Below the pieces are notes generated by a model. That model saw only the letters and a list, made by a program, of their open reading frames with translations, ran no database searches and had not been told where the DNA came from. Shown in pieces: positions 32,101-48,562 of a stretch of 64,000 nucleotides of DNA. Positions within the stretch are counted from its first letter, which is position 1; each line of letters opens with the position of its first letter. Where the stretch lies: IMG/VR virus record IMGVR_UViG_3300042731_005759, positions 64,001-128,000 of that record. One strand, 5' to 3'. Source of the DNA: a virus. Both the position numbers and the translations under genes were made by a program.

Positions 32101-35100
32101 ACCTATTCTTTCATATAAAATATTCACAGATACTGATGGTATAAAGAAAATAAGTGTCACACCTATTAAATACGACGTACCATTATATACTGACAATACT
32201 TGTAGAACTGAGGCGGATATTGATTGTTTAGATGGAGATACTTTTGATTTCTATTTTGATACATTTTACTTAACAGGAACAACCTGTTGTAATCCACAGG
32301 TAGATGTGTATGGACCGAATAAATTTTATACCCTACCTGAGGATGAAGATGAATGTATCCTCATGGAGGATGTATACTTCAAGGTTTCAGGAATTACTTT
32401 CGGAAACGAAGATATTGTTGATGATGGAGATCCATGTACAACTTGTCCACCATATAATACAACATGGCCAACAAACATTTTTATCAATTGTGTTGGTGGA
32501 TATAACGAATCAATTTCAGGTAATACAACATTACAAGAAGACCAAACAGTTGAATGGGTATCGGGTTGTACTTTCGTTATAAGAAATGTAAGAGAAAATG
32601 ACGTAATAGACATAACTATCACTGACGCGGCTAACTGCGATCAAAAAGTTAGAATTGATGGATTACAACAAAAATTTGAGTGGGATCCTATTGATGGTGA
32701 CGATGTTACCGAATCACGTAGTCATTTTTTCCAATACACAATCGATTCTTATTTAGAAGGTGAGGATTACCCAACTCACGATCCATCAGTAAGTCAAAGT
32801 GGTATAACATTCTGTGATAATTTTTCAGGATATACCCTACACCCAACGGTACAATATAGACCTACTTTTGATTATGGTCTAAAACAAAATACTAAGGTCA
32901 TTAAAATTAACAATGGTGTTATTATAGATGACGAAAATACTTGGGTAGATGTACAGAATTATTTCCAAGATAATACATTAGAGTTAATCGATGTTGAAGA
33001 TGTTCAAATAGGTGATAGATTACTTTCAGGACAATATCTTAACTGTCCTTTCAGTTCAAGTGATTATACAAACGCAGTACTGAGTGGTTATTCATTTAGT
33101 TACAATTACTTAACCGTTGAAGTGGACAATAAAGATTGTTTAGGATCAACAAAAGTAAATGTGATTAATGAAAGATTTAGAGTTTTACCAAATTCTAAAT
33201 TAAGGGTAATGACACAGGTGGGAGATCATTGGGAGTTTACAGAAAAATATCCTGAAGAATTAATAGTGAGACCACCTGAACCAACAGAACCTTGTTGTAA
33301 TTACGGTGTAGACTATTATAAAAAAGGTGATTTACTAATAAACGAATTAGGTTTTCCAATCGAGGTAACCTCATTAGATTTAGATTATTGTCAAAGAGAT
33401 TTATTTTATCATCTGAATGTTAGTGCTGTTTACAGACAACCATCAAATACATTAAGTATTGTTCCTGATAATCCTTTTGGTGTTTCCACAGAATGTTGTA
33501 CGGAAGTTATATTATTTAATGGTGATGTTGACGATCAAATATTGGTAGAATATGATGAACAAATATTTGAAAATTTAGATCTCAGTTCACAACAATATTA
33601 TCAAGACCAATTAGATTGTGTTGATGAGCCAACAATCGAAGATTTAGAAAGACCCGAATATACGGAAAACTGTAATGATCTAAATGCGTTTATTGGTATA
33701 CATTATACTGATGGTAACCAAATATTAATTGAGTATGATGAATCGTACAATATTGGTAATATAGTTCAAGTATCAGAGATTAACTCACAACTAACAGAAT
33801 ACCTCTCACCAGGTATGGATTGTTATGAACTAACAGGAATAGCATACTCTGAAAATATTACACATCAAATACTTTCTATATGTACTGATTTGATAACACC
33901 AACAGCGTCTCCCGCACCAACAGGAACACCAACTCCAACACCAACAATTACTGCTAGCCCAACACCTTCACCATCACCTTCAGAAACACCTGAACCTACC
34001 CCTTCACCAAGTCCTAGTGAGACTCCATCACCAACATCAACGCAAACTCCTACACCATCACCTTCACCAAGTGAGACCCCTGAACCTACTCCTTCACCAA
34101 GTCCAAGTGAAACTGCAGAACCTACACCAACACCTTCAGAAACACCTGAACCGACTGCAAGTGAGACGCCACAACCAACAAGTAGTAGTACGCCAGAACC
34201 AACACCAAGTACTACACCTGATCCAACACCATCACCTTCACCTAGTCCATCACCATCACCGAGTCCTTCTCCAAGCCCAAGTCCATCACCAAGTGCAACG
34301 GCAAACTGTGACTTCGATGTTGATATAGACATTGCGACTCCAACCCCCACAAATAGTAGTACACCAGAACCAACACCTAGTCCATCCCCTTCACCTAGCC
34401 CATCTCCATCACCAAGTCCTACAGTTACTGCAAACTGTGACTTTGACGTTGATGTAGATATTGCTACTCCTACACCAACACCATCTCCATCACCTAGTCC
34501 TTCTCCGTCGCCAAGTCCTTCTCCGAGTCCAAGTGCAACGGCAAACTGTGATTTTGACATTGATATAGATATTGCAACACCAACACCTACACCAACAAAT
34601 AGTAGTACACCTGAACCTACCCCTAATCCTACATCAAGTCCTACACCATCACCTAGCCCTTCACCTTCACCATCACCAACACCTAACTGTGATTTCGATG
34701 TTGATATAGACATTGCAACTCCGACTCCGACTCCTTCACCATCACCGAGTCCTTCTCCGAGTCCGAGTCCAAGTGCAACTGAAAACCCAACACAAACACC
34801 AACACCATCCCCAAGTCCTACGCCAAACTGTGACTTTGACGTTGATGTAGATATTGCAACTCCTACGCCAACACCTAGCCCTTCCCCTTCACCTAGTCCA
34901 TCACCATCACCATCACCAAGTACTACACCTGAATCAACACCAACGCCTTCACCTAGCCCATCCCCTTCACCAAGTCCAAGTCCAAGTGCAACGGCAAACT
35001 GTGACTTTGATATTGATATAGACATTGCAACTCCGACCCCAACACCTACAAATAGTAGTACACCTGAACCTACTCCTAATCCTACACCATCACCAACTGT

Positions 35101-46603: not shown

Positions 46604-48562
46604 ATGGGTGTAAGATTAACGGTCAATAATTTATATAATAATGGTGTGTGTTCTGAGTATGGGATATACACTGCCACAACGTACAATGGGGACCCATATG
46701 TGATCCCTCCAAGTGCAACATTTTTAGGTGAACACTCACTTCCTTACGAATTTACCTTAAGTAGTATTACAAGTGGACCTATTTATGTATTTGTTGAACA
46801 TTGTGACAATCATATTTTACCACCACCAAACGAAGATCCAAAAAGACAAGGTGGATTTCAAGTAAAATTGGTAAACATTGACTGTGAACCTGATTGTCCT
46901 ATTGGACCGACAGGTACACCTAATCCAACTGCTTTCCCAACCGCAACACCTCAACCAACTCCTAACCCAACTAATGAACCAACACCTAATCCTACACCGA
47001 ATCCAACTGCGGAACCTACACCTGAACCAACTAATCAACCAACACCATCCCCAAGTCCAACACCTAACTGTGACTTCGATATAGATATTGATTTTGGTAC
47101 GACACCAACTCCGACCCCTACAACTAACTGTGATTTTGACGTAGATATTGATTTCGGTACTACCCCCACACCAACATCCACACCTAACTGTGACTTCGAT
47201 ATAGATATTGATTTGGGTACCACACCAACTCCAACACCAACTAATAATTGTGATTTTGATGTTGATGTAGATATTCTTACACCAACTCCAACACCAACTA
47301 ATAATTGTGATTTTGATGTTGATGTAGATATCCTTGTACCAACACCATCACCATCACCTTCACCAACTAATAATTGTGATTTTGATGTTGATATAGATAT
47401 TGTTACTCCGACACCAGTACCAAGTCCAACATCTACACCTAATTGTGATTTCGATATTGACATAGATATTGTAACTCCAACATCTACACCTAATCCAACA
47501 TCTACACCGAATTGTGACTTTGATGTAGACATAGATATTGCAACACCAACACCAACACCTAATCCATCATCTACACCTAACCCATCATCAACACCTAATC
47601 CAACACCTAACCCTACTGCAAATTGTGACTTTGATGTAGACATAGATATTGCAACACCAACACCTACACCATTACCAAGTAGTACACCACTACCGTCATC
47701 TACACCTAACGCAACCCCTAATCCAACCCCTAATCCAACCCCTAATCCAACACCTAACCCAACTAATGAACCAACACCTAATCCAACACCTAACCCAACA
47801 TCAACACCTAATTGTAATTTTGCTGTTGATGTAGATATTGCAACACCAACACCGACACCTAATGCGACTAATCAACCCACACCTAACCCAACTAATGAAC
47901 CAACCCCTAACCCTACCGCAAATCCAACATCAACCCCTAATCCAACACCTAACGCAACCCCTAATCCAACCCCTAACCCTACCGCAAATCCAACAAGCAC
48001 ACCTATTCCAACCCCAACTCCAACTGAAGGTGGAGGTGGAGGTGGCACACAGTATTGGGAGTTAGAATTTTGTGGTAGTGAAGCGACAGCACTTATATAT
48101 CTGATAGATAACCTCTCTCAGTACGAACCAGGTGATGTAATATCTTATGGTGGAGATTGTTATACTACAGTTCAAGTCACAACACCACCTAATAAGGCAA
48201 TATTAATAAATCCTGACAATACCTTTACAGACTGTTCTCAATGTACAGGTAGTATGACACCAACATCAACACCTAGTCCTTCTGCAACGGAAGAGGCGAC
48301 TTATTGGGTTCTAAGAACATGTGACGGTGGGCCAACTTTAAATGTTATACATGACCCATTCCTTAACCTAAATCAAGGTGCTGCGGTTTACGCCAATAAT
48401 GAATGTTATGAATTATTTGCTTTAACCTCAGATGATTCAGGTTTAATACTCCACAGTGGAGAATACGAAAATTGTACGGCATGTATAAATGATAATGACC
48501 TACCTCAGGAGGGTATAGAAAATGAGGAAGTAGGACCTACACCAACTCCAACAGAAGAATAA
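46604..48562 (+). CDS. Modular scaffold-like protein with 10 NCDFD motifs on a PT stalk and two Cys-rich domains
   Basis: Translation; YWxLxxC...CY...CxxC domains occur twice at the C-terminus. Confidence 0.8.
46907..48025 (+). repeat. Pro/Thr/Asn coding repeat with 10 NC[DN]F[DA][VI]D[VI]D modules
   Basis: Read directly. Confidence 0.9.

Follow-up and report, generated by a model that had tools for sequence, protein, structure and literature searches.

The window analysed here is a stretch of 64,000 nt (positions 64,001 to 128,000 of the virus record IMGVR_UViG_3300042731_005759), and all positions below are those of the whole window unless another contig is named. It comes from a virus contig of 176 kb, about 51% complete, that encodes T4-like replication genes and a gp6-like wedge. 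A gene cluster within it, running from a probable baseplate wedge gene (29174–36631) to a closing gene at 57155, carries a short Cys-led strand of the form NCDFD[VI]D[VI]DI, hereafter the motif. An earlier note had counted 22 copies over three proteins (10 + 2 + 10), and all of them were located: 10 in the open reading frame (ORF) 29174–36631, two in 36672–41903, and 10 in 46604–48562. Nine of the wedge copies start where the note had placed them, and the tenth starts at 35945 rather than 35946. Genes are named below by their start positions, and the motif copies and the domains proposed to bind them are called donors and acceptors.

29174 to 36631, + strand: putative root scaffold, 2485 aa, a probable gp7/gpI-type baseplate wedge with a C-terminal Pro/Ser/Thr stalk.
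33896 to 36166, + strand: its stalk, 757 aa (35% Pro, 23% Ser, 18% Thr), with ten donor motifs.
34304 to 35974, + strand: the ten donor motifs, at 34304, 34433, 34544, 34685, 34826, 34997, 35246, 35417, 35696, and 35945.
37053 to 37082, + strand: donor motif 1 of the cadherin/SprB protein 36672.
37332 to 37361, + strand: donor motif 2, directly ahead of the first cadherin domain.
47066 to 47839, + strand: ten donor motifs of the branch protein 46604, spaced 19–23 aa and then 37 and 63 aa.

The gene 29174 lies downstream of a gp6-like wedge gene (18578–20410; phrog_219, E 3e-21), and the Pfam family Tail_P2_I matches 21 of 41 homologues of its product weakly (best E 0.01, below the cut-off); judged by these sequence features, the product is probably a gp7/gpI-type baseplate wedge. 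The 757-residue stalk could reach ~200 nm if extended (estimated at 0.3 nm per residue). Its motifs are 37–93 aa apart, and the spacing tends to widen distally on this stalk (43–83 aa) and along that of 46604 (20–63 aa).

The strict pattern is matched by 17 of the 22 copies (chance expectation 8e-8), and a loose pattern was seen 21 times versus 0.016 expected by chance. The five copies that deviate from the strict form comprise three ending in F or L, one ending in ..VEM, and one other ten-residue sequence. The copies had been described as isolated between Pro/Thr (PT) or Pro/Ser spacers; the ..VEM copy departs from this and adjoins the first cadherin domain directly, without a PT spacer. The looser relatives reported in other ORFs are all present, the numbers given for them being ORF starts. 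Wedge copies differ by 2.6 synonymous versus 1.0 non-synonymous changes per pair, with replacements mostly between V and I, and synonymous differences exceed non-synonymous ones in every comparison class except the single pair within 36672; the motif is therefore under purifying selection and not merely a set of fresh duplications. Conservation in related phages, which the earlier note had named as a test, was borne out: the motif is kept across a wide family of large T4-like phages, whose motif-bearing proteins carry 1–16 copies each. It was found in 64 metagenome stretches, and a search of 185,579 prokaryote genomes returned only a phage contig from a Flavobacteriaceae bin and one chance match.

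To define which face of the strand is conserved, we used 150 distinct variants lying between Pro/Thr linkers, from a search that required Cys at position 0 and allowed F, L, I, V, or M at +2. Phe occupies +2 in all 150 although the other four residues were permitted, and +4, +6, +8, and +9 are mostly hydrophobic. Asp stands at +1, +3, +5, and +7 in 77, 85, 103, and 57 variants, respectively, and some relatives' genomes use variants without any Asp. Because the hydrophobic face is kept and the Asp face varies, the conserved face is that buried by a beta-strand. The strict Asp alternation described earlier thus holds in this genome and not family-wide, and since Asp is not kept across the family, a Ca2+ ladder on that face, as had been suggested, is not a family property.

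These data bear on two rival explanations. In one, the motifs zip together as inter-chain beta-sheets with disulfides and Ca2+, bundling the stalks, for which the strict amphipathic alternation, the single Cys per copy, and the regular Asp face in this genome would speak. However, Asp is not conserved and is absent from some relatives' motifs, there is no fixed copy number (1–16 per protein) or spacing, the motif comes and goes with the acceptor domain described below, and the Atlas model of 46604 shows no fold with confidence (pTM 0.22), which is weak evidence; in-register self-zipping is less likely than docking, and we consider such bundling quite unlikely. In the other, the motif would have no part in assembly and would be a multivalent ligand, turned outward to bind a host surface molecule or a metal. 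It is indeed acidic, exposed, and multivalent, with genome-specific variants, but it is the hydrophobic face that is conserved, and a single Cys in each copy does not by itself make a metal site, which leaves this explanation highly improbable.

The nine genes that separate the wedge from 57155 each begin with a beta domain of 75–130 residues (the N-domain), assigned in seven cases by family hidden Markov models (HMMs) built here, in one by Pfam fn3, and in 51561 by eye. These predicted acceptors, read here as resembling fibronectin type III (FN3) domains, and the remaining features of the cluster are as follows.

36672 to 36923, + strand: acceptor N-domain, FN3-like without strand A, with a single Cys74 in the FG loop.
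37395 to 41903, + strand: adhesin-like cargo of the same protein, three cadherin (PF00028, E 1e-25) and ~13 SprB repeats (PF13573, E 4e-79).
41967 to 42206, + strand: acceptor N-domain with a single Cys70; leaf protein, no donor.
42594 to 42971, + strand: acceptor-type N-domain of a second class, no FG Cys.
42984 to 43013, + strand: tail strand KIKFDVDYVC.
43901 to 44155, + strand: acceptor N-domain of a third class, single Cys74.
44159 to 44182, + strand: donor-like strand a few residues past the last strand of that domain.
45231 to 45494, + strand: acceptor N-domain with a single Cys76; leaf protein.
46604 to 46891, + strand: acceptor N-domain of a fourth class (Cys16, 67, and 94).
48572 to 48808, + strand: canonical FN3 domain starting at strand B (Pfam fn3, E 6.5e-9).
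48812 to 51211, + strand: six looser Cys-led strands on Pro/Thr linkers, at 48812, 49736, 51032, 51077, 51143, and 51182.
51561 to 55682, + strand: N-domain (by eye) and a probable parallel beta-helix cargo, on weak matches (GH141_M, E 0.02; 9rx2, E 0.007).
55730 to 57136, + strand: acceptor N-domain with a single Cys65 (HMM E 1.2e-8) and cargo with Asp-box-like repeats.
57155 to 59434, + strand: conserved gene, the last of the cluster in every relative.

The N-domain of 48572 scores 36.3 bits against Pfam fn3 (cut-off 25), with residues 3–66 aligned to positions 15–73 of the 84 in the profile, and the match likewise begins at profile position 15 in two relatives. None of 70 acceptors has 15 or more open codons upstream. 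Given a match that starts at fn3 position 15 and no upstream coding room, strand A is absent from the 48572 chain, in which the seven FN3 strands A–G do not all lie. An artefact of stop recoding or of a missed start was ruled out by standard stops and in-frame stops just upstream.

The main acceptor family, comprising 36672, 41967, 45231, and 55730, is large (1,843 clusters at 50% identity), and its best 150 matches all start at residue 1–3. It has no Pfam match, and its PDB profile match to fibronectin reaches only E 0.38. AlphaFold models its N-domain, taken from 36672, as a six-stranded sandwich (predicted local distance difference test, pLDDT, 87). The best fold matches of this model are FN3 domains aligned from about their residue 16–20 (Z 4–5.2), including 2h45 18–95, 3mpc 17–93, and 1cfb 627–707, with a top VIA-align match of Z 5.2, root-mean-square deviation 3.0, and 69 aligned residues; since Z is only 4–5.2, we read this as a common arrangement with FN3 and not as kinship. 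A Foldseek search of the PDB returned nothing at E <= 0.001, an Atlas feature search with the N-domain gave no usable match, and hhalign of the family against SprB repeats, the wedge-internal domain described below, and other acceptor classes stayed under 4% probability. The sole invariant column of the family is the FG-loop Cys (Cys74; 74 of 74 sequences, mean column identity 22%), which recurs in 150 of 150 further HMM matches, a profile-biased set. The number of Cys residues is odd in 69 of 73 domains and exactly one in 44 of them, and the FG-loop Cys is usually unpaired. In FN3 domains, strand A starts at the pole where the FG loop lies, and the leading Cys of the motif would therefore fall there. 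Two stand-alone 77-aa proteins of another marine virus, Virus NIOZ-UU157, also have the acceptor fold (BFVD A0A7S9XFL2 and A0A7S9SU94) and are possible caps for unused donors.

In an AlphaFold model of residues 1–142 of 36672, the motif forms a strand (132–137; pLDDT 74 versus 48–56 in the linker), and with the motif included the first strand of the N-domain lengthens from 4–9 to 4–13. The model matches C2-type sandwiches over residues 1–140; in C2-type folds the last strand lies beside the first, and the motif appears in this model to occupy the strand-A site, beside the first strand of the domain. Fusions in three relatives (L019, L032, and L057) lend separate support: there a 42594-type domain and its tail strand continue without a break into a 46604-type domain (E 3e-18 to 1e-10), whereas the two are separate genes in the window. 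The split therefore lies between the tail strand and the first strand of the 46604-type domain, and the 46604 N-domain is the predicted partner of the 42594 tail strand. In relatives' intact SprB-type domains and in a wedge-internal domain, a Cys-led first strand is paired with an FG-loop Cys in cis.

The same cis model would also suit a circular permutant, in which the motif completes the N-domain of its own protein and extra copies are by-products of repeat expansion, and many proteins do carry the motif 10–60 residues past the domain. However, the wedge carries ten motifs but lacks an acceptor, the motif is absent from four acceptor proteins, and all copies are under purifying selection. 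In 43901 the link is only a few residues, and we infer from FN3 geometry that the strand at 44159–44182 is too close for folding back in cis. Completion in cis is, in our judgement, very unlikely.

Co-occurrence was scored, with a broad donor rule set after inspection, in 18 regions that cover the whole stretch between the gp6-like gene and the closing gene. Twelve have a main-family acceptor together with a free Cys-led donor, five (including the complete genome G016) have neither, one has donors with another acceptor class, and none has a main-family acceptor without a free donor. Motif count and acceptor count are correlated over 27 records (Spearman 0.84), among which kin share traits. The motif might instead dock to another partner (the 57155 product, the sheath, the capsid, or a protein encoded beyond the contig), or it might add to a sheet edge with no disulfide formed; the N-domains would then be attached otherwise. 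N-domains without a free Cys-led motif in G012, G022, and G026 indicate that another attachment route exists, and the partial completeness of the contig (only ~51%) also favours such a partner; but the missing strand A and the invariant unpaired Cys would go unexplained, and 57155-type closing genes are present in phages without any motif. We regard docking to another partner as unlikely.

Several observations weigh against donation in trans. The six-stranded domains fold confidently on their own in the model, and AlphaFold might place any amphipathic strand at an open sheet edge. The cis model is modest (mean pLDDT 72, pTM 0.59) and gives no Cys–Cys distance. The fusions concern the looser KIKFDVDYVC strand, none that joins the main motif to a main-family acceptor having been found, and one internal acceptor copy follows a linker without strand A. 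The co-occurrence reduces to only three independent contrasts on the tree (p 0.25), none of them in the wrong direction, and three regions with other acceptor classes have no free Cys-led donor. The wedge assignment falls below the Pfam cut-off. A complex prediction of the 36672 N-domain with the motif peptide (0.46, versus 0.34 for an unrelated control peptide) was counted neither way.

Weighing these points, we favour, with moderate confidence, donor-strand complementation in trans, probably disulfide-locked, as the means of building a branched display on the baseplate. The motif would be a free strand A of an FN3/Ig domain, and the cargo proteins would begin with an FN3-like domain of six strands that lacks strand A, as profile and model indicate. 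The motif would pair with strand B, burying Phe+2 and the alternating Val/Ile as it does in the cis model, and its Cys, at the FG-loop pole, would form a disulfide with the invariant unpaired Cys of the domain, probably after lysis because the cytoplasm is reducing. The wedge would be the root, with donors only (ten). Branch nodes, combining an acceptor with donors, would be 36672 (two), 46604 (ten), 42594 (one), 43901 (one), and 48572 (about six loose ones), and the leaves would be 41967, 45231, 51561, and 55730. With six wedges, as symmetry would imply, up to 60 first-tier sites would stand on flexible stalks of ~200 nm and be multiplied by the branches, and the displayed adhesins and enzymes, presumably at the baseplate, would catch a host that is probably a member of the Bacteroidota. 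We put forward only tentatively, as somewhat short of probable, the fuller proposal that an FN3 domain split between strands A and B serves as a branching, covalently locked display in which donor and acceptor classes order the tree. Where the earlier note had offered docking or zipping, it is the strand-donation branch that is taken up here, with FN3-type N-domains lacking strand A and bearing an unpaired FG-loop Cys named as the partner.

Other observations touch on the scaffold, the donors, and the stalks. An Ig/FN3-like domain inside the wedge (window 30750–33600, aa ~1035–1165) shows, across 27 homologues, a first strand with a conserved leading Cys and an FG loop of the DAANC type; it is a possible ancestor of the split pair. 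Since a position-specific scoring matrix of the donors ranked its first strand highest in some homologues only, we do not claim that the motif descends from this strand. In L004 and L005, two motifs stand in direct tandem, with an 11-residue period and no linker, an arrangement in which acceptors would be stacked head to tail. CxFxGGxAxY, a further donor-like class, follows 42594-type domains, and one wedge has a tandem pair of it at its extreme end. G005 (L109 + L017) has a 4688-aa protein that is 84% Pro/Thr/Ser linker, and also acceptor domains fused internally behind linkers. A small Cys-rich repeated module (YxxC...GD.V...CY...CxxC), which belongs to no Pfam family, stands at the end of many stalks (window 41967–48562). 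The genome also encodes two GT7 glycosyltransferases joined to LamG domains, together with GT2 enzymes, an epimerase, and two cytidylyltransferases, and these could glycosylate the Pro/Thr/Ser stalks. Another group of Pro/Thr-rich proteins, encoded close to the head genes (G000:37227-45325, outside the window) and with neither motif nor acceptor, possibly forms head fibres.

L022:7831-8712; L056 wedge C-terminus; L064:7751-8401: the CxFxGGxAxY class.
L131:4006-7831; L132:1504-2289; window 62027-62895: glycosyltransferase-type genes.

Among the cargo is a domain common to cyanophage-type tail connector families (phrog_677), and the BNR match of the 55730 cargo was not significant. The 57155 product resembles a tail-collar/fibre-attachment protein by eye; it has no significant match, and this identity was not confirmed.

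The closest annotated phages by capsid and wedge, Microcystis phage Mel-JY01 and Flavobacterium immuto phages, are distant, and none of the annotated phages searched matches wedge 29174–36631, the 57155 product, or the N-domain. Related complete genomes are 310–335 kb. A Shine-Dalgarno-like motif precedes only 6 of 106 genes, and 51 of the 106 have A at −3, a combination that points to Bacteroidota. Together with the SprB-repeat cargo and a close relative, a 248-kb contig binned with Flavobacteriaceae (mis-binning possible), this makes a Bacteroidota host likely. TATTTAT occurs within 40 nt upstream of 25 of the 106 genes, many of them structural and often 4–6 nt before the ATG; in the window it precedes 41967, 42594, 45231, 46604, 51561, and 55730. 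It is a candidate late promoter or initiation signal and matches the reverse complement of part of the T4 late consensus. A QueC-like gene (17344–18057) lies between ribonucleotide reductase and the baseplate genes.

If true, donation in trans would account for a domain family that is very large and uncharacterised and for the long Pro/Thr proteins found in abundant aquatic phages, and it would suggest how large phages capture hosts in dilute water and exchange cargo genes freely. In type 1 and P pili, assembled by the chaperone-usher pathway, a strand of one subunit fills in the incomplete Ig-like fold of another, and the subunits thereby interlock (PMC13721041). The phage system would share the incomplete fold and the donated strand, which the cis model and the fusions fit and which we extend to trans; unlike in pili, an FN3-like fold is involved, and it is the first strand that is missing. 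Whereas the pilus donor is a single N-terminal extension, donors here are internal or C-terminal, repeated up to ten per chain, and carried on disordered stalks, and the product would therefore be a tree and not a linear fibre. A disulfide lock is predicted here, whereas pili are non-covalent.

Cellulosomal scaffoldins are multivalent scaffolds built on cohesin–dockerin pairs, with Pro/Thr linkers, adaptor-like second tiers, and interchangeable cargo. The comparison made in the earlier note, of a scaffold 'cohesin' equivalent, stands for architecture only, namely repeated docking units on Pro/Thr linkers, second tiers, and interchangeable cargo. Ten cluster proteins matched neither a cohesin nor a dockerin family of Pfam at E <= 0.1, and the polarity is the opposite one: the repeated unit of the scaffold is a 10-residue strand, and the folded domain belongs to the cargo, presumably on a virion. 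A conserved Asp-rich Ca2+ site is also lacking, the Asp positions varying among the 150 variants.

Peptide-to-domain docking also adds receptor-binding proteins to phage tails, as with the branching domain and conserved peptide of KP32 and in CBA120 and S117 (PMC13352976). In KP32 and the Ackermannviridae, it is the added protein that bears the peptide, at its N-terminus; the scaffold supplies the gp10-like domain, and branches are few (PMC13352976). The polarity here is the reverse, with cargo that starts with the folded domain and peptides on the stalks; the valency is ten or more per chain, and the linkers are long and disordered. A T4 gp10-like branching domain gave no PHROG or Pfam match in the cluster proteins, which lie far from these libraries. 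SprB/cadherin adhesins of Bacteroidota are represented in the cargo of 36672, and the intact SprB-type domains of relatives share the Cys-led first strand and the FG-loop Cys; unlike the split pair, these domains are complete in one chain, and homology to the acceptors is not established (hhalign 1–3%). As in SpyTag/SpyCatcher, a peptide strand would complete a beta-sandwich and be covalently locked, whereas that pair is engineered, uses an isopeptide bond, and has a CnaB fold, to which a match (4mli, Z 4.4) indicates no kinship.

By their defining features, the system belongs with neither pili, nor the cellulosome, nor branched phage receptor-binding systems, and no description of it was found in a literature search of partial coverage. 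The small natural peptide/domain pair, with its predicted disulfide lock, could serve as a protein-ligation tool. If the proposed mechanism is true, it is a natural tag-and-catcher toolkit that places tens to hundreds of adhesins and enzymes on a baseplate, with pilus-type donor-strand complementation, applied multivalently, giving a phage tail its cellulosome-like tree.

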